Shown here piece after piece: positions 683-51,000 of a DNA stretch of 64,000 bases. Below the pieces are notes generated by a model. That model worked only from the letters and a program-made list of their open reading frames with translations. It made no database searches and was not told the origin of the DNA. Each line of letters starts with the position of its first letter. Positions within the stretch are counted from its first letter, which is position 1. The translations under genes were made by a program, and so were the position numbers. This stretch comes from Escherichia phage IME08: sequence record NC_014260.1; one strand, written 5' to 3'.

Positions 683-1381
683 TTAGAACGAGTGGCTTGA
701 GCCTGCTTCCATAGCTAATACGTAAGAAGCTTGTGAACCTTCAAACTTAGCAGCGAAACGAGCATCTTGACCTTCACCGCGTGCCCATAGCAATACATGA
801 TAATCAGCCGGCATCATTTTCATATTAGTTTTGTTAATAATGAATTTGAATTCAGGGCCATCATGGTCTGCAACCACTAAGGAATACAACGGTCGAGTCA
901 ATTCTTTATCGTCAACTTGTTTATAACCGTTGATAACGATTTTACCATTGTCTACAGTGATAGCAAATGTATCAATACTCAGTCCAGAGGACACACGCAT
1001 CAACTGTTGATAATCTTCGGCTTTAAGGTCAAAAATAACTTCAGCCACCGGGAACGGAATAGCTTTGCTTGGGAATGCAATTGTGCTTGGGTCGGCAATA
1101 GGCCACTTAATAGTTGAACGTTGGTCTTTAATAATTAAAGTGGTTTGGTCTTCACTTACTGAAACTTCAGCACTATCGGATACCAATGACAGGATACTTA
1201 AGAAGCCATTCAAATCATAGATTGCGGCTTCGATATCAAAGGTGTCATTTACAGTAGCTTCACCATAACTGGCACCCGTTACTGAACGGGTTAGAATAGT
1301 GTTACCAGGTTTAAGCATGATACCTGGGTTAATACCGGAGAAGTTTTTCAGAATGTTCAGAGTTTCTTTAGAGAATTTCAT
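683..1381 (-). CDS. 45: Sliding clamp gp45 (DNA polymerase processivity factor)
   Basis: 232 aa, MKFSKETLNILKNFSGINPGIMLK matches T4 gp45 N-terminus and length (228 aa); synteny 46-rpbA-45-44. Confidence 0.9.
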   Translation of the reverse strand: MKFSKETLNILKNFSGINPGIMLKPGNTILTRSVTGASYGEATVNDTFDIEAAIYDLNGFLSILSLVSDSAEVSVSEDQTTLIIKDQRSTIKWPIADPSTIAFPSKAIPFPVAEVIFDLKAEDYQQLMRVSSGLSIDTFAITVDNGKIVINGYKQVDDKELTRPLYSLVVADHDGPEFKFIINKTNMKMMPADYHVLLWARGEGQDARFAAKFEGSQASYVLAMEAGSSHSF

Positions 1382-4215: not shown

Positions 4216-5234
4216 CGTGTAACCTCATTATAAAGTTGTGCAGCCATAGTCTTAAGGGCTTTAACATCGTCTTCAGTGTGGCCATCAGGAAGGGCGTCGA
4301 TATAATCATACATCATATCCAAGAGGGACTTAACTTCATCTTCCTCTTCAGAATCATCGATATCAACACTGTTATCTACCTTAGACACGATACGTAAAGA
4401 ATGGACGACCTTTTCAAGCTCTGATTCGAACTTAGTAAGGCCATCATCGATTTTATCGACTATAACACGAACTGCAATATTTGTAAAATCTTTGTAATCG
4501 ATAGTCGCGTTAGGATAATGAATCTTACGGTGCCAACAGGTTTCATTGATGACGAAATCCATTGTATGGGTTTCTGTATCGAAAATCCAGAAGCCGCGAG
4601 GGTCGTTTTCATCACCTGCAGTCAGGGTCCATGGCGTACCAATATACTTAACGTTTGCTGCATCAGAAATAGTGTGGAAGTGGCCTGACCAAACTTGCTT
4701 ATACCTCTTAAGGAAATCAGGTTCTAAACCATGAGATTTCATTCCTTTATAGAAATAGAAACCATTTAATTCCCAGTGACCTATACAGAAATCTGCTGTA
4801 GTATTTTTGATATGGTCCATGATATCAGTAGTGTTTTCTTCACACATCCATGGAATCAAATCAATTTCGGTACCATCAAAGTTAACCGTAGTAGGTTTCT
4901 CAATAACCTTGATATGGTCGTATTTACCCAGAACTTCAGAAGCAGCGTTCGGAGTCAAGGTATTTTTGTAGTGTGCATCATGGTTGCCGACGACAGTATA
5001 CATGGTAATGCCGTTGGTTTTAAGCAAATCTGAAATATGTCTAGCAAATTCCATACACTTATGAGTAATTGCTTTACGAACATCAAAAATATCACCATAC
5101 TGAATCCAGACAGTGATACCATTTGCTTTAGAATAATTGATGGCATCTTTGATGCCTGCCAATTGGATGTTTTGCACCCAAGGGTCGTCGTTCTTCACTC
5201 CAAGGTGCCAGTCACCCGTATTAAGAATTTTCAT
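4212..5234 (-). CDS. 47: Recombination endonuclease subunit gp47 (Mre11/SbcD-like phosphoesterase)
   Basis: Start at MKILNTGDWHLG (metallophosphatase motif I), about 340 aa as T4 gp47 (339); GNHD motif present; synteny with 46. Confidence 0.88.
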   Translation of the reverse strand: MKILNTGDWHLGVKNDDPWVQNIQLAGIKDAINYSKANGITVWIQYGDIFDVRKAITHKCMEFARHISDLLKTNGITMYTVVGNHDAHYKNTLTPNAASEVLGKYDHIKVIEKPTTVNFDGTEIDLIPWMCEENTTDIMDHIKNTTADFCIGHWELNGFYFYKGMKSHGLEPDFLKRYKQVWSGHFHTISDAANVKYIGTPWTLTAGDENDPRGFWIFDTETHTMDFVINETCWHRKIHYPNATIDYKDFTNIAVRVIVDKIDDGLTKFESELEKVVHSLRIVSKVDNSVDIDDSEEEDEVKSLLDMMYDYIDALPDGHTEDDVKALKTMAAQLYNEVTR

Positions 5235-5838
5235 TACGTATTCGTTCCCACATTTTGGAGGCTGCTTTAGAAGCAGAGCCAGGAAGTTTACCTTTGACCC
5301 ACCCATCAGGAATATTAGATGGGTTAATCAGTTTATGTTCTATTCCGTTATTATACCACTTCCTGCCCTTATTATGACTAGATGCTTTATAATTAGGTGA
5401 ACGACCTTCTACATATCCTTCGGGGACTGTAGGTGCAAAGGTTTGTTCTAATGTAACAGGATTATAGGAATGAATATACCCTTTAGCATTATGAGAGCCG
5501 TAAAGAGGGTGTTGCTCTTTAGGTAGCGAAAGCCCAAAGAATCCTTTAGGAGCTGCGACAGCCCTATTAAAGAATAGAGGATTTTGGGCTGCATCGGTTC
5601 TTAACTGGTACATTCTTTCAGCTTCTAAAGCCTCTTCTCTTGTAGGGTGTTCACTTACAATACATGAGTCAAATAATTCTGGATGCTCTAAAAGCTCATT
5701 TTTATAGATTTCTTTATATGCTTTAGAAAGGACACTCCCGTGATATCCTTTTAAATGCTTCTCTAAAGTGGTAGACCCTATATAAAACGGTGGAAGCTTA
5801 GTCCCGGAATATATTGTCAGGTATGTGATGTATTTCAT
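5221..5838 (-). CDS. Putative homing endonuclease (GIY-YIG-like N-terminus, WYNNG-type C-terminal motif)
   Basis: 205 aa; N-terminal LTIYSG...FYIGST...KHLKG resembles GIY-(8-10 aa)-YIG; C-terminal GRKWYNNGIEHK...IPDGWVKG resembles DNA-binding modules of phage homing endonucleases; occupies the locus where T4 carries alpha-gt. Confidence 0.45.
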   Translation of the reverse strand: MKYITYLTIYSGTKLPPFYIGSTTLEKHLKGYHGSVLSKAYKEIYKNELLEHPELFDSCIVSEHPTREEALEAERMYQLRTDAAQNPLFFNRAVAAPKGFFGLSLPKEQHPLYGSHNAKGYIHSYNPVTLEQTFAPTVPEGYVEGRSPNYKASSHNKGRKWYNNGIEHKLINPSNIPDGWVKGKLPGSASKAASKMWERIRNENS

Positions 5839-6607: not shown

Positions 6608-6838
6608 TTAATCCTTTGGAGTCAATTCAATAGTGAAGTAGAAATTAGCGTTCTCAACATGATAACGATAATCTACGTTATTGTCAGGAGAAGTGAATTC
6701 AATATTCCTGACGTTAAGTGGGTCAATATCAATAGGAAGGCCTTTAACATCCCGTAATATCAATTTAATAAAATAAGGGAGTGCTTCGAAGTCTTCCATT
6801 CCATCTAAAAGTGGAGTGATATTAATCTGATGTTCCAT
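6608..6838 (-). CDS. Hypothetical protein
   Basis: Track ORF 6608-6874 begins with a non-ATG codon; first ATG at 6838, slightly overlapping the gene 55 end. Confidence 0.4.
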
Positions 6839-7379
6839 ATAAAAAATCCAGTTCACCGACTTTAGGTTCGGCACTCTTATCAGACCCTGGTGCTTTAGTT
6901 AAAGAGGTTTCATACTGAGTCATTTTGTCGTAGATATCTTGGATAAAGGTTTCATCTGCGATACCTACCATGTCGTCATCATTACTGTCATAGACGTTAT
7001 GGACGAAGTAGCTATATTTCTTTGCCATTTCTTTACGTTCTTTTTTGATACGCTGAACGAAGGCATTAAAACAAGCCATAGTGATATATGCATGTGGGTT
7101 GTCGTATTTTGTTTCGTCGAAGTTGTGAAGACCTTTAATCGAAGCTTCGATTCCATCAGCAATCATTTCTTGCTTCCAAGATTGGGTATATCCTGAGAAG
7201 TTGAAACGTTTACTTAGTCCTTCAGCAATGAGCATAATAGCCAAGCCAATAACGTCGTTCTGGCGAACTATTTTATTAGGATCAGTATTTTCTCTGAGCT
7301 CTGTTTTCCATTGGGTAATAGCTTTCAGAAGCTCCTTATTATTTACATAGTTATTTTTAGTCAGTTTAATTTCGGTCAT
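6822..7379 (-). CDS. 55: Late-transcription sigma factor gp55
   Basis: 185 aa, same length as T4 gp55; near-identical core [13 protein letters not shown]...[57 protein letters not shown]. Confidence 0.92.
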
Positions 7380-11733: not shown

Positions 11734-12042
11734 TTAACGGTCACACCACCAACTACTTACTTCAAAATCAGGTTCACCGTGTTCCCAGTACCAAGGGCCG
11801 ACTGGATGCCAATCGCCATGTTCATCTTCTTCAAATTCTTCAGATTCAAGCCCAACATATTGCCATTGGACTTCATAAGCGGTGCCACCTATTACAACGG
11901 TGTTCTCGCCATATGGGTGAGCTACAGCAAAGTCTATACCTTCTGCTTTAGCCAACCAAACCATATATTCGTATAGTTTATATTCCAGGTCATCTTCGGT
12001 GCCATCACCTAGAAAAATGGTTTGTTCGTTTAATTCAATCAT
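11734..12042 (-). CDS. Hypothetical acidic Trp-rich protein
   Basis: 102-aa ORF. Confidence 0.45.
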   Translation of the reverse strand: MIELNEQTIFLGDGTEDDLEYKLYEYMVWLAKAEGIDFAVAHPYGENTVVIGGTAYEVQWQYVGLESEEFEEDEHGDWHPVGPWYWEHGEPDFEVSSWWCDR

Positions 12043-21228: not shown

Positions 21229-21459
21229 TTAAATTTTTTCGAATAATGCTAAAGCTTTTTCGATAGCTACAGATTTGGTACCAATAACCATTTTAGGCTG
21301 AGATTGGAACTTAGTAGCTTCGTAAACTTCTAAACCGGTTACTTTACCATTTTGTTCGATAATAGCAAAGGTGGCGTTTTCAAAATCTTCAGCTTTAACT
21401 TTAAGTGCTTTAGAAGCTTTAGCGATATCGATAACTTTCAGGTTGGTGATGGTTTTCAT
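21229..21459 (-). CDS. Hypothetical protein
   Basis: 76-aa ORF with SD GAGGAG, first gene after an early promoter. Confidence 0.45.
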   Translation of the reverse strand: MKTITNLKVIDIAKASKALKVKAEDFENATFAIIEQNGKVTGLEVYEATKFQSQPKMVIGTKSVAIEKALALFEKI

Positions 21460-21487
21460 TTTGTTCTCCTCATTAGTTGATAGGTCT

Positions 21488-21516
21488 ATAGTATCATGTT
21501 CCTAGAGGATGTAAAC
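21488..21516 (-). promoter_or_regulatory. T4-type early promoter (PeSL-like cassette)
   Basis: Minus strand GTTTAC, 17 nt, TACTAT, then AGACCTATCAAC. Confidence 0.6.
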
Positions 21517-21524
21517 ACCTAAAC

Positions 21525-21555
21525 GAAAAAAGGTCCCACCGAAGTGAGACCTTTG
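21525..21555 (-). terminator. Rho-independent terminator (UUCG tetraloop)
   Basis: GGUCUCAC-UUCG-GUGGGACC followed by UUUUUU, right after the stop of the 21557-21940 gene and just upstream of the next promoter. Confidence 0.55.
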
Positions 21556-21556
21556 A

Positions 21557-21940
21557 TTATTCTAACGTCAGCAAATACTTAGTCTGGTAAAAGACGCCAG
21601 TGATATCGTCCAAAGTCGACTGGATGGCCTTGGGAAGGGTGTCATAGATTTTATCAGTTGCTTTAAGAAGCTCATCAAGGAAATCTACAGGGTCCTTAGG
21701 CAAGTCTGAAGCAGACGGTAATGATGCTTTATATTCTTTGCCACTGAATCCAAGATATTGCTCACTAAATTGGTCCAGAGGTCCTTGAACTTCTACATAA
21801 TAGAAGTCATACGCTTTGTGTCTTGCATAGCTTTTGGTTTCTAAATGGGCTGACTTAAAATAGGCTAAAGAAACCAGTAGCCAACCAATATAAGAATCCA
21901 CTTCAGACCCTCGACCGGGTACGAAATCATTGAATTTCAT
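21557..21940 (-). CDS. Hypothetical protein (127 aa)
   Basis: ORF downstream of rI. Confidence 0.45.
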   Translation of the reverse strand: MKFNDFVPGRGSEVDSYIGWLLVSLAYFKSAHLETKSYARHKAYDFYYVEVQGPLDQFSEQYLGFSGKEYKASLPSASDLPKDPVDFLDELLKATDKIYDTLPKAIQSTLDDITGVFYQTKYLLTLE

Positions 21941-22220
21941 CTTCTACCTTCATTAGTTTTGCATAACGCTCTCCGATGGCACGACCTTCAATTGAGCATG
22001 CTTCTATAGTCCGACAACTTGAATTCTTCCAGGAAGCCGTAACATAGGCCCAATAGTCTTCGGAGGCCTTTACGCTTGGTCTACTCATTTGCGCATAAAC
22101 AGGCATCGCACTACTAGCAAACGCGTCCATCAATTTATCGTTGGTATCATTTGCTAGTGAAACTGAAGGGCCTAAACATCCCGCCATAAGGATACAAGCC
22201 GCTGTACGGAAAATATCCAT
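21927..22220 (-). CDS. rI: Lysis-inhibition regulator RI (antiholin)
   Basis: 97 aa, same length as T4 RI; N-terminal signal-anchor-like segment and C-terminal KNSSCRTIEACSIEGRAIGERYAKLMKVE resembling T4 RI KNDPCSSDFECIERGAEMAQSYARIMNIK; adjacent to tk. Confidence 0.7.
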   Translation of the reverse strand: MDIFRTAACILMAGCLGPSVSLANDTNDKLMDAFASSAMPVYAQMSRPSVKASEDYWAYVTASWKNSSCRTIEACSIEGRAIGERYAKLMKVEDEIQ

Positions 22221-22309
22221 ACAAATGTCCTTTGTTGTTTTATACTATTTGCCTTTCGGCCTTAACCGATAGCGATTACCAAAAGCTAAAGCTCTACGGT
22301 TAGTATTAT

Positions 22310-22317
22310 TATTTATA
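22310..22317 (-). promoter_or_regulatory. Candidate late promoter upstream of rI
   Basis: Minus-strand TATAAATA overlapping the stop codon of the upstream gene. Confidence 0.35.
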
Positions 22318-22591
22318 GCTTTTTAAGCTTACGACAATAAGAATAGAACACGTCGTTAAAATTATATTCAACCCAATTCCTCTGTATAGGCGAGGTAATG
22401 GAAAGCATATAATGCGCTTTAATTAAATCCATCCCATTTTTATTAGGACACTCTTTATTATTAGCATTATACGTCGCTGCTACAACCTCTATCTCTCTTT
22501 TGTAAGCCACATCATCCATGATAGGCGAAAGAACAATATAAGAAATAGCCACAGCGAACGCTAGAATTAAAATCTTTGAATTTAGGTCCAT
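22313..22591 (-). CDS. Membrane-anchored hypothetical protein
   Basis: 92-aa ORF with N-terminal TM segment, between tk and rI. Confidence 0.45.
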   Translation of the reverse strand: MDLNSKILILAFAVAISYIVLSPIMDDVAYKREIEVVAATYNANNKECPNKNGMDLIKAHYMLSITSPIQRNWVEYNFNDVFYSYCRKLKKL

Positions 22592-22598
22592 AGTACCC

Positions 22599-23171
22599 TC
22601 AACTCGTTATTTCTATCCAGTGCTTCCTGCACAATGACACGTAAGAATCGTTGCCACCTATAGAAACTTGGGCTCCGTCCTTAATTGCGATACCATCTTG
22701 GATACGAGCCGTCATAGTAGCTTTACGGCCGCAATGGCACACACCTTTATACTCAACGAGTTTATCTGCCGTAGCGAGTAATTCAGCAGAGCCAGGAAAC
22801 AGTTTACCCTGAAAATCAGTTCTTAGTCCATAGCACATAACTGGAACATTATAATTGTCTACTATCTTGGCCAGTTGTTTTATCTGTACAGGTTCTAAGA
22901 ATTGCGCTTCATCCACAAACACACAGTGGATATCTTTTTGAGATTCAGCCCAACGATAGAACTCGTATAGGTCCATATCCGGAGTCACTGCATTAGCCTC
23001 TTGGCTAATCCCTATACGAGATGAAATGCTATGGCTTGATTCTCTATTGTCTATCGCAGGCTTTAAAAGGAGTACGCCCATACCGCGTTCTTTGTAGTTA
23101 TGAGCGGCCGTTAGCAATGAAGCAGTCTTCCCAGAATTCATTGCAGCATAGTGAAAATAAAGTTGAGCCAT
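22599..23171 (-). CDS. tk: Thymidine kinase
   Basis: 190 aa; Walker A NSGKTASLL, zinc-ribbon CHCGRKAT...CRKH typical of type II thymidine kinases; matches T4 Tk. Confidence 0.9.
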   Translation of the reverse strand: MAQLYFHYAAMNSGKTASLLTAAHNYKERGMGVLLLKPAIDNRESSHSISSRIGISQEANAVTPDMDLYEFYRWAESQKDIHCVFVDEAQFLEPVQIKQLAKIVDNYNVPVMCYGLRTDFQGKLFPGSAELLATADKLVEYKGVCHCGRKATMTARIQDGIAIKDGAQVSIGGNDSYVSLCRKHWIEITS

Positions 23172-23180
23172 ATTACCTTC

Positions 23181-23387
23181 TTAAAGACTATTTACATAAG
23201 CTATTAATTCATTTTCTTTCTCATCAAATCGATTGGCAAATTCTTCCTGATGTTCGGCATCTATTGGACCGTATTCATCATAAAAGGCGTTTGCTTCCGT
23301 ATGCTCATCCAAAAGCTCATGGATAAGCTCAAATAATTTATCTTTCTGTTCTTTACTCAGACTCATAACCATTGCACCTTTAAGCAA
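23181..23387 (-). CDS. Hypothetical acidic protein
   Basis: 68-aa ORF. Confidence 0.4.
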   Translation of the reverse strand: MLKGAMVMSLSKEQKDKLFELIHELLDEHTEANAFYDEYGPIDAEHQEEFANRFDEKENELIAYVNSL

Positions 23388-23575
23388 TATTCTTCTACAT
23401 GCTGTTTACGTTTATTTTTATCTATAAAAGTATATTCAACATATTCACCTATATACCATTTATCGGTGTTGTGTTGACTTTTTATAGGGCATTTAGTTAC
23501 TCGAGTTTCGGTCCAGCGTCGAATAATTTCCGCTTTGTTTTTAGGGTCAAACGGATGTGGGTAATGGGCTTTCAT
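23363..23575 (-). CDS. Hypothetical protein
   Basis: 70-aa ORF. Confidence 0.4.
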   Translation of the reverse strand: MKAHYPHPFDPKNKAEIIRRWTETRVTKCPIKSQHNTDKWYIGEYVEYTFIDKNKRKQHVEEYCLKVQWL

Positions 23576-24014
23576 AATCTACCACCACTAAATTGATATC
23601 AGGAGTAAACAAATTAATCAATTGATAAACCTTGTCCCAATCACCACCAGCAATACCACAACCAATGCGAGGAATATAAATTCTTGGTTTAAACAAAAGA
23701 CCTTTTGCGGTACGGTTTAATTCTATCATACAGTTTACTAAAGCACCATAATCAAGATTAGGGCCTGGCTCGTATTGCGTATAAAGATTATAGCAAATTT
23801 GCCCATTATTACCTGTGGCTTGAGTAAATGTGCCAAGTTTTTCTACACCGCCTAAATAAGTGGTTTTATCGATAGCGAGAATAGGCGGATAAGCCTTAGC
23901 CAATTGTCCGGCTACACCTGAACCCATTGTATGGAAACAATTGCACCCGTGTGCAACATTATTACCTTGAAGAAACAGGGCGACGATATCGCCCTTAATA
24001 TAATCAATAATCAT
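23547..24014 (-). CDS. Macro-domain-like protein (possible ADP-ribose binding/processing)
   Basis: 155 aa; GNNVAHGCNCFHTMGSGVAGQL resembles the macro-domain N...GGG(V/I).G.I loop; assignment by motif only. Confidence 0.4.
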   Translation of the reverse strand: MIIDYIKGDIVALFLQGNNVAHGCNCFHTMGSGVAGQLAKAYPPILAIDKTTYLGGVEKLGTFTQATGNNGQICYNLYTQYEPGPNLDYGALVNCMIELNRTAKGLLFKPRIYIPRIGCGIAGGDWDKVYQLINLFTPDINLVVVDYESPLPTSV

Positions 24015-24367
24015 TTAGAATTTAATCCTCGGTTGTACGAGTCAACGAGTCTGTCTACCATAGACGCGCACATTTCTTTGTACTTTTTATCAGATGGAAC
24101 ACATTCAGTAACGTTTAGACGTTGCTCGTACCTTTTAGAAAGAGTTTTCTCTTTCATTCTGCGATGCTCTACGTCGTTCTGTCCATCTTTAAAAGCCGCT
24201 GTGATTTTTGAACTGAATTCGATAACGCATTCAGTATTACTTGGATGACAATAATCTTTTGCTGTGCGGGTAGCATACTCAACAATTGAATTATTGCTAT
24301 CATCAACTTGTGACGCTAATACTCCCGGAGCTATCAACATAAGCGCTATAGTCATCTGCTTAATCAT
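24011..24367 (-). CDS. Secreted/periplasmic hypothetical protein
   Basis: 118 aa with N-terminal signal peptide MIKQMTIALMLIAPGVLASQ. Confidence 0.45.
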   Translation of the reverse strand: MIKQMTIALMLIAPGVLASQVDDSNNSIVEYATRTAKDYCHPSNTECVIEFSSKITAAFKDGQNDVEHRRMKEKTLSKRYEQRLNVTECVPSDKKYKEMCASMVDRLVDSYNRGLNSK

Positions 24368-24907
24368 TTAGTATACCGCCTCAAACATCTTTTTAGATTT
24401 TAGGTAATTGGCCTTTTCTAGAACTTCAGAAGCATACTTACTGCCTGCTTTGACGTTCCAGCCCGCATTATAAGAAGCAATCGCTTTTCTCAGGTCACCT
24501 TTGTGAACATCAATCCAATAAGACAGCTCAATGTAGGCCCAAGAGGCACTGTTCTGTCGTTTTTGGACCATGCGAATTATTTCTTTGTCTGACATCTTCC
24601 AACCTACCTGTTGAACACGACTTCTTAACGTAGGCAAGTAATTTTGGAACATGCCATAAGCATGGTGCTTATCTTTATTTAAACCCTGATTAATTCCGGC
24701 AGATGATTCCTGCCATAGTAATCCGGCCATGATATATCCTAATCCTTTTTGATTAGGGTTTTCTTTGAACTTTCCCGACTTTTGGTATTGTTCACCGAAA
24801 GCATACGCATAATGTAAATTATCGAGTTGTTCATTACTGAAAGTAGGCTCTACGCTATGGGCAGACATACTAACTGTCAATAGTAAAGTGGCTAATACTT
24901 TTTTCAT
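24368..24907 (-). CDS. Secreted lytic transglycosylase (SLT domain)
   Basis: 179 aa; signal peptide MKKVLATLLLTVSMSAHS; SLT motifs WQESS (catalytic Glu-Ser), AYGMFQ, SYNAG. Confidence 0.6.
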   Translation of the reverse strand: MKKVLATLLLTVSMSAHSVEPTFSNEQLDNLHYAYAFGEQYQKSGKFKENPNQKGLGYIMAGLLWQESSAGINQGLNKDKHHAYGMFQNYLPTLRSRVQQVGWKMSDKEIIRMVQKRQNSASWAYIELSYWIDVHKGDLRKAIASYNAGWNVKAGSKYASEVLEKANYLKSKKMFEAVY

Positions 24908-24919
24908 GAGACCTCATTA

Positions 24920-25378
24920 TTAAAGATAGATTACTTTCGTGCTGGTTTTACCTTCTAAACGTTTAGAGTTAACAAATGCCATACGACATTTAAGGGAATA
25001 TCCTTTATCAGGATGTTTACGGTCTACGGTCATACCTAGCCATAAGGTTTTATCGGTAATTTCGAGACGCAATGGACGATACACTTTACCAGGGACAATT
25101 TCGGATTCTACATCAGGCAGAGGTTCCTGGATTAAGAATTCATGGATTTCTTTAACATGGTTATGGAGTTGCTTGAATAAAGCAAAAACGTATTTTTCGT
25201 CGATTTCACGTTGGATAGCACGGTCCAACAAATGATTAGAGTACTTAATAAAGAAGGCTGGGACTCCGCTCTTAACGGCGGCTTTTTTGATGGACGCATT
25301 CAGTTCGCGGAATTCGGTTTCGAACTGACGACGTAATTTGTTGCGGCGGATGAATACTTCTGAATTAATTTCTGACAT
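24920..25378 (-). CDS. regB: Site-specific endoribonuclease RegB
   Basis: 152 aa (T4 RegB 153); EVFIRRNKLRR.FE.EFR...HLLDRAIQREIDE.YVF.LF matches T4 RegB. Confidence 0.85.
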   Translation of the reverse strand: MSEINSEVFIRRNKLRRQFETEFRELNASIKKAAVKSGVPAFFIKYSNHLLDRAIQREIDEKYVFALFKQLHNHVKEIHEFLIQEPLPDVESEIVPGKVYRPLRLEITDKTLWLGMTVDRKHPDKGYSLKCRMAFVNSKRLEGKTSTKVIYL

Positions 25379-25406: not shown

Positions 25407-25435
25407 ATAGTATCATGTCTACAGGAGATGTAAAC
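25407..25435 (-). promoter_or_regulatory. T4-type early promoter upstream of regB
   Basis: Minus strand GTTTAC, 17 nt, TACTAT, then AAACCTATCAAC; inverted repeat CCTGTAG/CTACAGG spans the -10. Confidence 0.6.
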
Positions 25436-28742: not shown

Positions 28743-28771
28743 TACCTCCTGAGTATAGGAGGTATTTATAT
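28743..28771 (-). promoter_or_regulatory. SD-sequestering hairpin plus late promoter for gene e
   Basis: 8-bp inverted repeat (UACCUCCU / AGGAGGUA) pairs the SD of e; minus-strand TATAAATA abuts and overlaps the 5' arm. Confidence 0.6.
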
Positions 28772-34110: not shown

Positions 34111-34457
34111 GATTTACATTCCTTAATAAAGATTTCAAGGTCATTACGTTTAGTTTGTTTTACATGCTCATTATAATTAGCCATCTCTAAAGCATATCTC
34201 TTACGGATGGGAGCATTCAAAGCGTTTGTATGGCAAATATCATACACAACAGGGATAAAATAAGCCACGACAGCCGGAGCGATTATCATATAAAAACCCA
34301 TCTCAATAGGCGTGACTCCTTCGATTGCCGCCATAACCGTGGTCATTACCAGACCAACCAAACCTCCTAGCATACCGGTGACAATTCCCATAAATAAGGA
34401 AATAGCAATATCATATTCAGCCAATTGATAAACATGTGATGAAAGACTAGGCCGTTC
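34107..34457 (-). CDS. Membrane protein
   Basis: Internal Met (MERPSLSSH) of track ORF 34107-34634; two or three TM helices. Confidence 0.4.
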   Translation of the reverse strand, partial: ERPSLSSHVYQLAEYDIAISLFMGIVTGMLGGLVGLVMTTVMAAIEGVTPIEMGFYMIIAPAVVAYFIPVVYDICHTNALNAPIRKRYALEMANYNEHVKQTKRNDLEIFIKECKS

Positions 34458-37634: not shown

Positions 37635-37719
37635 TTAATTCTATTATGAAAGGCTCTTTGAGGGAAGAACCTTTGGTAATAGAGGGTATTAATGATAGAG
37701 TAATAATATCACATAATTC

Positions 37720-38004
37720 TTAAAGCATATTAATGTAATCAAGTTTAATAGAAGCAATCTTCAAAGGATTTTTAAAGATGTCGTATTCGACCAATCCATT
37801 TTCAGTTGCGGTATAAAAAGTAAAGTTAACAGAATTATAACGATGGCTGTTAACTTTGAGCTTAACATCGCTTGAACTACGTCCTATATTAACCTGTTGA
37901 ACATCAAGAACAGCATCTTTGCCATAATTGCGAATCAACAACTCAGCTGCAACCTGATCGGATTTATAGCCATTCTCTGGATTAGTAACCTTAACGTATA
38001 GCAT
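37720..38004 (-). CDS. Hypothetical protein (94 aa)
   Basis: ORF upstream of the tRNA cluster. Confidence 0.45.
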   Translation of the reverse strand: MLYVKVTNPENGYKSDQVAAELLIRNYGKDAVLDVQQVNIGRSSSDVKLKVNSHRYNSVNFTFYTATENGLVEYDIFKNPLKIASIKLDYINML

Positions 38005-42840: not shown

Positions 42841-42848
42841 TATAAATA
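42841..42848 (+). promoter_or_regulatory. Late promoter (TATAAATA) for gene 53 and the baseplate operon
   Basis: Plus-strand TATAAATA 28 nt upstream of the gene 53 ATG, SD GGAGG in between. Confidence 0.6.
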
Positions 42849-42875
42849 TTAATATTATTTATACTCGGAGGCCCT

Positions 42876-48040: not shown

Positions 48041-51000
48041 ATGTCTGTGCAAGCGCCTTCCGTTACTAGTTTGAGAATCGATAAACTCTCGGCTAACCAT
48101 GTAAGTATTCTTTGGGATGACGTAGGCGCCAATTTCTATTATTTCGTAGAACTGGCCCAAACCAAGGATGCGGGTGAATCTATACCCGATGATAAGTTAT
48201 TTTGGAGAAATTTAGGTTACACCCCGAACAATAACTGGTTCGAAGAAAGATTTATTTCTCCTAATTCGTTTTATAAAATGCGTGTCGCTGTAGCTGCTCA
48301 AGGATTTGAACAATCTGACTGGGTTTATACAGAAGAATTCGAGACATTTTCTACTAACGCATATACCTTCGAGCATATGCGTGAATTCACTTTATCCAAT
48401 AAATTCATTGAAGAAAAATTTACCAAAAATAACCAGAGTTACGTGGATTTTAATAGTGATGCCATTATGGCTTCTATGATGACCGAAGATTTTACTTGGA
48501 CTCCGGCATATTCACACCTTTCTTCAATTTCCAATTATGTATTAAAGGCCGACCGCTTCCACGAGATTCAAGGAAGTATCCAAGCCGTTTGTAAAGACCC
48601 TAATCGTTCTATTTTAATGGAGCTTGGTGGCGTACTTTACCTTTTAGAAAGATTCCAGAACACCGCTAAGGTATCTAACGATAAGGCCCAGAACTGGCAT
48701 TATATCCGTTTGTTTAATGATAGAGTAGGTAATCCGGTTTCACGTACGGCTCATTATCAAACAGATACAACAACTTATGTTCTAGGTTATGACCGTATAT
48801 TTTACGGACGTAAATCGAGTGATATTCGTTGGTCGGCTGATGATGTACGTTTTAGCTCACAAGACGTGACATTTGCCAAAATTGGTAGTGATATCGACCT
48901 GGACTTCGAAATTGAAATTTTTGGTTCTTATGCGCGTTTACCATTAGCTATTTCTACTATCGCAGAAGCTATGTGTGCTTCGGATGATTTTATTTACGTT
49001 GCGGCTCGTGACAGAGTTTATAAAGCAAAAACTACTGATGCCCCTATTGATACCGACCCGGGTTCTCCTACTTATGGTGAAAAAATATTTGAAAGCGGAT
49101 ATTCGACTATAACCGGTAACCCTAAAGCAGTTTGTTATAAATTGGATTCTATCCAAGGAAATACCTTTGCCTTAATTACGGGTGAAGTTAAAGAAGAAAG
49201 AATGGACCCTACTAAAGAAGAAAACGTGGTTGATTCTGAATCTAAAGGTGTTTATTGGTTGGATGTCGAAACTGATACATGGACCCGAGTATTTGGTAAT
49301 ACTGAAGAAGAGAGACGTCGTATTGAGCATGGCTATACTAGCATGTCTACCGATGGCGAAGAAATATTCTTTAGCTCAAGTAACTTCAAATATGAAGTAG
49401 AAGTTGATAACGAATTACCTTTGGAATACCCTATTGTGGCCTCAGCGGTAAAATACGTTAAGGACGAACAGTGGATTCACGATAAACATTATCTGATGAT
49501 GAGCTTTAGAGCTAACAGTAAATCAGATTTTAAAGAATTCAAACCAGGTCGAATGGCCTATTATGCTGAACCATTCTTTAGTTGGTCTAGACGAGATGGG
49601 ACCCGTTCTTGGATTACCACAAGTAATCATGCAATGGTTGTTTATAACGACGCATTGTATCAGAAAATTATTGATTTAAACAGCGGTTCTTCTCCTGAAC
49701 GTATTATTCGCGAAATTTGGGATAAAGGCTTTTGTACCGTAACATGTCCTAACATCGAATTCAATGGATTTAAAAAATACTCTTCAGGTATAATGATTCA
49801 CAAATCATCAGGTGAATTGGTTGGATATTTCGAGTTCGACTACCGAGTTCGAGATGAAGTTAGAATAATTTGGAAGCCTAAAGAAATAATGTTTACGGCT
49901 GAACTTCAAAACCAAGAGCATGAAATTCCATGGACCCCTAAAGAGGAAACCGGTGAACAAGACCCAGATTTGCGTCCTTTATTGGTTAAAATGGTTCCTG
50001 ATAGTTATTTGCTTCAAGATTCTAACTTTGAAAAATTCTGCGAATATTATCTCCAGTTTATTAGTGATGGCTCCGGCACTCATTATAATAATCTATTAAA
50101 TCTTATTCGTAACCAATACCCTAGAGAAGAAGATGCGTGGGAATACTTATGGTCTGAAATCTATAAACGCAATATCTATTTGTCTAAAGAAAAACGCGAC
50201 GAAGTAGTTCGTTTCTTCCAAGCAAGACAATCGGATTTCTGGTCTACAAAAGGTACTGAAGCTTCATATAAATTCCTGTTTAAATTGCTTTATAACGAAG
50301 ACGTTGAAATTGACATCGAGTCCAAGAACTCGATTGAATATGATATCATCGTAGAATCCGACAATATCAGTGAAGATATCGTAGGTCAAACGATTTATAC
50401 CCCTACAGGAAGAAGTAATGTTACTTATATAGAACGAAATTACAAAGATGGTAAATTGCAATGGCGTTTAACCATCCACAATCTTTTAGGCCGTTTTATA
50501 GTCGGACAAGAGATTAAATCTGAACGCACCTCATTTAAAGGTATGATAGTGCAGGGTGTACGCGGTAAAGAATTGTTAAGTAACAATATCGATTATATTA
50601 ACCGTAACCGTTCTTATTATGTTATGACTATTAAATCCAACCTCCCTACTTCTCGATATCGTAATGACGTGTTGAGATTTGTTCACCCTGTAGGATTTGG
50701 TTTTATAGGGATTACGTTGCTTTCTATGTTTGTTAATGTTGGTTTGACATTAAAGCACACGGAAACCATTATTAATATACTTAAGAACTATAAGTGGGAC
50801 TCAGGTCTTCCGTCCGAGTGGTACGATAGAGTTGCTGTAATCGGATTTGATGGTAATATAGAAAGAGACCCTAGAACAGGACTTCCGGTTTATAACGTTG
50901 GACCTAAAGCAGGCGAACCGTTCCCTATTCCTGATGGTTATGATGCAGAAAATGATTTCTCTGTATTCCAAGGTCAATTACCTCATGAACGTATTAAAAA

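Follow-up and report, generated by a model that had tools for sequence, protein, structure and literature searches.

An exact TATAAATA octamer precedes the antiholin gene rI on the minus strand of the 64-kb stretch of DNA analyzed in the present study (hereafter, the window), and it is highly likely that this octamer is a T4-type late promoter that serves rI and is orthologous to the tk/rI.1 promoter of T4. The initial annotation stated that a minus-strand motif overlaps the stop codon of the gene preceding rI. The sequence and a pattern search confirmed this exactly as stated: the minus strand around the octamer reads ...AAA AAG CTA TAA ATA ATA ATA CTA ACC..., and positions 3–5 of the octamer are the TAA stop (22315..22313) of a 92-aa ORF, the last residue of which is Leu (CTA). 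From the end of the octamer to the ATG of rI, the distance is 89 nt. The further claim that the motif would act as a late promoter for rI agrees with all of the computational and comparative tests described below.

The rI locus and its late-promoter motif

The 1.7 kb around the octamer showed 99.4% identity to Escherichia phage EcWhh-1, a T4-like phage of the Dhakavirus type, and 92–98% identity to Bp7, JS10, WG01, QL01, and other Dhakavirus-type T4-like phages. The features of the window are summarized in Table 1.

Table 1. Positions of genes, motifs, and predicted elements in the window.
Feature	Position	Strand	Remarks
Gene 45 homologue	683..1381	-	sliding clamp activating late transcription; phrog_223 2.7e-78
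Gene 55 homologue	6822..7379	-	late sigma factor reading TATAAATA; phrog_234 'late sigma transcription factor' 8.9e-69
Intrinsic-terminator-like hairpin	21529..21554	-	11 pairs, then a T run; directly 3' of rI.-1
rI.-1	21557..21940	-	127 aa, DUF5856; profile matches and synteny with T4
rI	21927..22220	-	RI antiholin, 97 aa; Pfam PF24205 Antiholin 5.9e-24; phrog_1246 'lysis inhibition' 2.3e-30
rI translation-initiation region	22202..22232	-	Shine-Dalgarno AAGGA 22232..22228; ATG 22220..22218; predicted start hairpins outside the window at loci L010, L019, L024, L027, L029, L034, L044, L048, L053
Predicted late 5' leader	22221..22304	-	84 nt; from alignment; folds with z = -2.7
Small hairpin GCC-GAAA-GGC	22251..22260	-	after invariant GTTAAG; retained in centroid fold; homologues located in loci L010, L019, L023, L024, L027, L029, L036, L039, L044
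ACTAAC	22299..22304	-	first A (22304) = predicted late start, 6 nt after the octamer
TATAAATA octamer	22317..22310	-	taken as -13 to -6 of a T4-type late promoter
92-aa gene	22313..22591	-	phrog_6298, E 3.5e-37; N-terminal hydrophobic segment, two Cys
tk	22599..23171	-	
Two small ORFs between tk.4 and tk	23363..23575 and 23181..23387	-	
tk.4	23547..24014	-	
Middle-promoter candidate, MotA-box type	23720..23745	-	TGCTTTA-N13-TAGAAT; inside tk.4, 1.4 kb upstream
vs	24011..24367	-	
vs.1	24368..24907	-	
regB	24920..25378	-	
Early-type sigma-70 promoter candidate	25407..25434	-	GTTTACA-16 nt-TGaTACTAT; gap upstream of regB, 3.1 kb before the late motif
MotA-box-type matches	1854-1877, 23720-23745, 34170-34194, 37703-37727, 49106-49129	-	
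MotA-box-type match	11944-11969	+	

Based on profile and alignment evidence, we consider the identification of gene 21927..22220 as rI to be secure. Its product scored 84.1 bits against the Pfam family PF24205 'T4-like virus antiholin family' (cut-off 27), and C69 and C75 of the periplasmic domain of RI were invariant in an alignment of eight lineages that included T4 RI. The downstream gene, rI.-1, overlaps the end of rI, and both genes appear to belong to one transcription unit. An Rfam scan of 21400..22700 returned only a sub-threshold match to the STnc100 sRNA (21521-21587 on the minus strand; 32.3 bits vs a gathering score of 47), which falls on the hairpin after rI.-1 and is most likely a mere hairpin resemblance.

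The 92-aa ORF that ends within the octamer is a real conserved gene (phrog_6298); Pfam gave no match for it. A homologue of this ORF adjoins rI in Acinetobacter phage Ac42 (27% identity, E 1e-7) and in VR20. The 92-aa ORF showed no similarity to T4 rI.1 or to RI and is, therefore, neither rI.1 nor an RI paralogue. Because the late promoter comes after this gene, its expression is predicted for the early and middle periods only. The product is membrane-anchored, and lysis control could involve it as a periplasmic or membrane partner. Elsewhere in the window, the gene 46/47 region contains a mobile-element insertion, namely, an HNH homing-endonuclease gene (5221-5838, minus strand; phrog_10820, 1.5e-92) next to the gene 47 (SbcD-like) homologue, the annotated start of which it overlaps.

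In T4 late promoters, the octamer occupies positions -13 to -6 and no -35 element is required (PMC1524935; PMC2988020). The window octamer is an exact copy, located in gene-boundary DNA upstream of rI and on the strand of rI. The window also encodes homologues of gene 55 and gene 45 (Table 1), while gene 33, for the co-activator gp33, would lie outside the 64-kb window as judged by synteny with T4. Another late-like motif, TATAAAAC, is present in the leader (~22242..22235); it differs from the octamer at two positions and was not regarded as functional.

Placement and conservation of the octamer

The octamer may, in principle, be a chance product of AT-rich sequence, arising from the Leu-TAA end of the 92-aa gene, with rI being transcribed by early and middle read-through only. 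The genome is AT-rich, the leader before rI is unusually long (84 nt vs 20–40 nt between motif and ATG at the other late-promoter sites in the window), and the number of TATAAATA copies in the 64-kb window was not enriched, with 8 being found vs 7.98 expected from shuffles. However, the placement of these copies was not random. Based on a simple model with 119 ORFs, under which 89.8% of 8-mer positions are fully coding, none of the eight octamers was found within credible genes (P = 1.2e-8). Under a first-order Markov model, coding DNA contained one octamer vs 6.5 expected, and the ORF containing it, of 51 aa and at the edge of the window, is doubtful; non-coding DNA contained six vs 0.93 expected (P = 4e-4). 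The rI octamer straddles a gene end. Furthermore, all eight octamers point to a downstream gene with a Shine-Dalgarno sequence, and the homologues of the classic late genes e (endolysin; octamer at 28770..28763), 4, and 53 are among these genes. This combination of gene-oriented sites and their position outside credible genes (8/8; P about 1e-8) is difficult to attribute to chance. The octamer is shunned within genes and retained ahead of genes and, thus, behaves as expected of a real promoter signal.

Two octamers stand back to back (42841-42848 on the plus strand and 42856-42863 on the minus strand) in the 46-bp gap between the divergent homologues of gene 4 (head closure) and gene 53 (baseplate wedge). 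As judged from their arrangement, they probably form a compact divergent late-promoter pair.

Within Dhakavirus, the octamer was invariant, but the overall column identity was 93%. Due to this near-total identity within the genus, more distant loci were gathered, namely, six from GenBank records and 80 from IMG/VR, the latter by using rI.-1, a neighbour with better conservation, as the anchor. An RI-profile match was carried by 40 of the 80 IMG/VR loci, amounting to 158 kb. These 40 RI loci contained 36 octamers in the sense orientation vs only one in the antisense orientation, a bias that also argues against chance. Each of 36 loci had exactly one sense octamer, between tk and rI and always at the syntenic place, and all 36 were located in the gap immediately before rI or, where present, before rI.1.

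Independent lineages were defined as RI clusters at 60% identity, of which there were 13. The exact octamer was found in every member of ten of these lineages, directly before rI or rI.1-rI, and this recurrence at a syntenic place is not expected of a chance octamer. In two further lineages, the homologous site was occupied by a variant that differs at -13 (AATAAATA and GATAAATA). The commonest variant in the list of 50 T4 late promoters has A at -13 (PMC2988020), and T(-13) is not well conserved among other T4-like phages (PMC1524935). In the remaining lineage, Acinetobacter phage Ac42, rI was present without such a motif; therefore, the feature is not universal.

The octamer is fully intergenic in most lineages and, thus, coding constraint cannot explain it. 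It was invariant in the Dhakavirus and Gaprivervirus relatives, while the flanking codons diverged. In VR20, Leu is encoded by TTA instead of CTA, and the codons before it are different; however, the octamer is kept, which indicates selection on the octamer itself. Because of its placement and conservation, we regard chance as excluded and consider the corresponding explanation to be extremely improbable.

Conservation also bears on whether the site is mainly a sigma-70 (host/early) promoter, TTGTCG-18 nt-AATAAT (22337..22308), that provides an early rI transcript of its own. A consensus scan gave 9/12 matches for this element, which overlaps the octamer. However, 9/12 matches were no more common than in shuffles (22 found vs 20.9 expected), and the element lacks the GTTTAC and TG-extended features of the early-type promoter of regB. 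Moreover, the -10 and -35 hexamers were not conserved in JS98-like and VR20-like relatives, whereas TATAAATA was invariant. We consider a mainly sigma-70 function to be very improbable.

The late-promoter reading is accompanied by a second conserved element. The ACTAAC block was conserved 5–9 nt after the octamer in Dhaka-, VR20-, T4-, PM2-, PKO111-, and VAC36-type loci. The spacing was 5 nt in most lineages, 6 nt in PM2, and 9 nt in VAC36, and T4 itself has ATCTAAC. At the 5-nt spacing, the first A of ACTAAC coincides with the +1 position predicted by the -13 to -6 rule. ACTAAC was absent from the other late-promoter sites in the window; it is limited to the rI-type site and, therefore, serves as a marker of orthology rather than as a general promoter feature. 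The T4-type tk/rI.1 promoter region can be aligned with the window over the promoter, ACTAAC, and GTTAAGGC, and the window octamer is very probably the orthologue of the T4 tk/rI.1 late promoter.

The rI leader and its predicted RNA structures

The origin of the long leader is suggested by alignments. The 5' end of the 89-nt spacer aligns with the 5' UTR of rI.1 in other lineages (ACTAAC and a decayed Shine-Dalgarno sequence), and its 3' end matches the final ~45 nt of rI.1 coding sequence, a stretch that contains the invariant GTTAAGGC. Between these two aligned ends, roughly 180 nt of the rI.1 region are missing. In local alignments with the 3' end of rI.1, the VR20-like leader was co-linear, with p = 0.002–0.01 in four of six comparisons. 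The leader of the window reached significance only with the T4-like locus (p = 0.006), and its best match was always on the syntenic block. With this moderate support, the 84-nt leader appears to be the remnant of a deleted rI.1. We propose that a deletion of rI.1 occurred in an ancestor shared by the Dhakavirus and Gaprivervirus types, with the promoter coming to abut the upstream gene. Other lineages contain different inserts in the interval between tk and the promoter, with ORFs of 114–130 aa.

The small hairpin of the leader (Table 1) is located ~20 nt upstream of the rI Shine-Dalgarno sequence in the window. A homologous hairpin was found in all lineages, with the form GCYG-loop-CRGC in lineages with an intact rI.1 and GCY-GNRA-RGC in those that have lost it. 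The hairpin outlived the deletion of rI.1, becoming a GNRA tetraloop hairpin. One covarying pair was detected (U-A / C-G in 3/11 sequences) with no broken pair at that position; 95.5% of cells were paired, and 4 of 500 shuffles were as good.

The ATG of rI lies inside a predicted 9-bp hairpin (22224..22202, minus strand). Local hairpins formed by unrelated sequences (z from -0.3 to -3.3) enclose the start codon or Shine-Dalgarno sequence of rI in 10 of the 12 lineages: a 9-bp stem with the AUG in the window, in contrast to GGAGGCC/GGCCUU in the T4 type. As modelled, the start-region hairpin may limit the translation of RI. We assign a low probability to the possibility that the leader hairpin and the rI start hairpins together constitute a conserved post-transcriptional control of the antiholin dose. 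Such control could act on mRNA stability, processing, or the rate of translation and, if true, would represent an undescribed regulatory layer of lysis inhibition.

RNA folding is also relevant to a reading in which the late promoter is active, but has a mainly translational purpose, with read-through transcripts hiding the rI ribosome-binding site, as for T4 e and soc, such that translation would be confined to late-start transcripts. The Shine-Dalgarno sequence of the window was predicted to be unpaired with a probability of 0.80–0.87 in the late transcript vs 0.22–0.32 in read-through transcripts, and the pairing partner, UGUUCU, is located 41–46 nt upstream of the late start. Furthermore, T4 rI.1 shares the 'early RNA / late protein' class with e (PMC9697503 supplement). 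However, the effect was marginal in comparisons with shuffled upstream sequences (7/100 and 3/60) and was missing from 10 of the 11 other lineages, among them the nearest relatives (JS98-like and VR20-like). Ribosomes would also be expected to melt the pairing because UGUUCU is inside the translated 92-aa gene. Since it was marginal in the window and not conserved, e/soc-like occlusion was rejected as a conserved mechanism, and we attach only a very small probability to a mainly translational purpose.

Transcription of rI and comparison with known systems

The activation of the gp55/gp33 polymerase by DNA-loaded gp45 is established T4 biology (PMC2988020; PMC1524935). We propose that, after the onset of replication, host RNA polymerase with gp55, gp33, and DNA-loaded gp45 would open the DNA at TATAAATA and start transcription at approximately A 22304, the A of ACTAAC. 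The resulting late transcript would be ~0.78 kb in length, comprising the 84-nt leader, rI, and rI.-1, and would end at the hairpin 21554..21529. Before the late period, rI would be reached only via read-through, for which 25434..25407 and 23745..23720 are candidate promoters.

The initial annotation also proposed that read-through from early promoters adds early expression of rI. This part is plausible: the early-type candidate, which shows the T4 hallmarks, is 3.1 kb upstream, and no convincing terminator was found between the upstream promoter candidates and rI, with the only terminator-like match, a weak one, being located in the tk.4 coding sequence. The MotA-box-type pattern TGCTTYA-N11-13-TANNNT occurred six times in the window vs 1.7 expected, and five of the six matches were on the minus (early) strand, which suggests that this phage has retained middle transcription dependent on MotA. 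With a late promoter and early/middle read-through, rI would thus be transcribed in both periods, and this may maintain the supply of antiholin during holin accumulation.

The kind of element, its function, and its T4 counterpart have already been described, and the octamer of the window is a correct, but ordinary finding that alters no current concept. The new aspects are that this promoter was previously unannotated in Dhakavirus-type genomes, that it overlaps a stop codon, and that it precedes a leader resembling an rI.1 remnant. The GenBank records of T4, JS10, and Bp7 contain no promoter features, and rI is labelled 'hypothetical' in the original JS10 and Bp7 records. The present results are of modest value in that they supply missing regulatory annotation for Dhakavirus-type coliphages, which are members of phage-therapy collections. 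A late promoter immediately before the antiholin gene is a conserved T-even-like trait, and it survives both gene loss (rI.1) and gene insertion (the 92-aa ORF). This fits the idea that lysis inhibition needs fresh RI in the late period, when the holin is accumulating.

The closest known system is the rI.1-rI-rI.-1 operon of T4. In the passage of Golec 2010 (PMC2962797) that cites Paddison et al. 1998, this operon has a late promoter between tk and rI.1 and an early promoter 3.3 kb upstream. Not all of the 50 listed T4 late-promoter sites have proven activity in vivo (Geiduschek and Kassavetis, PMC2988020). The sole TATAAATA in 3.5 kb around T4 rI is in the tk/rI.1 spacer of 42 nt; the ATG of rI.1 follows it at a distance of 33 nt, and rI at 258 nt. 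T4 and the window both have the exact TATAAATA on the early-gene strand, the order tk, promoter, rI, and rI.-1, and CTAAC in the predicted start region, extended to ACTAAC in the window. They also share a downstream antiholin gene of the same Pfam family and an early promoter ~3.1–3.3 kb upstream, that of the window being a candidate. Unlike T4, the window lacks rI.1 except for putative remnants, its leader to rI is 84 nt, and the stop codon overlapped by its octamer belongs to an unrelated 92-aa gene that is inserted after tk.

The VR20-type loci of Gaprivervirus have the same architecture as the window, namely, tk, a homologous 91-aa ORF with its Leu-TAA embedded in TATAAATA, ACTAAC, an rI.1-remnant leader, rI, and rI.-1. 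They differ in having a shorter leader (66 nt), a small hairpin of the sequence GCT-GCAA-AGC, and an RI with only 48% identity. The VR20 record likewise lacks promoter annotation.

T4 gene e offers a similar arrangement, namely, a late promoter on the early strand that provides late expression of a lysis gene on top of early read-through. McPheeters et al. reportedly found in 1986 that the early transcripts of T4 e are translationally silent, with the ribosome-binding site being sequestered. Unlike T4 e, occlusion of the ribosome-binding site of rI was predicted in the window, but was not conserved. In time-resolved T4 omics data, RI protein is classified as late and rI RNA as middle, and the 'early RNA / late protein' group that contains rI.1 and e also includes ipII and ipIII (PMC9697503 supplement). 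These classes for RI and rI.1 are consistent with dual transcription.
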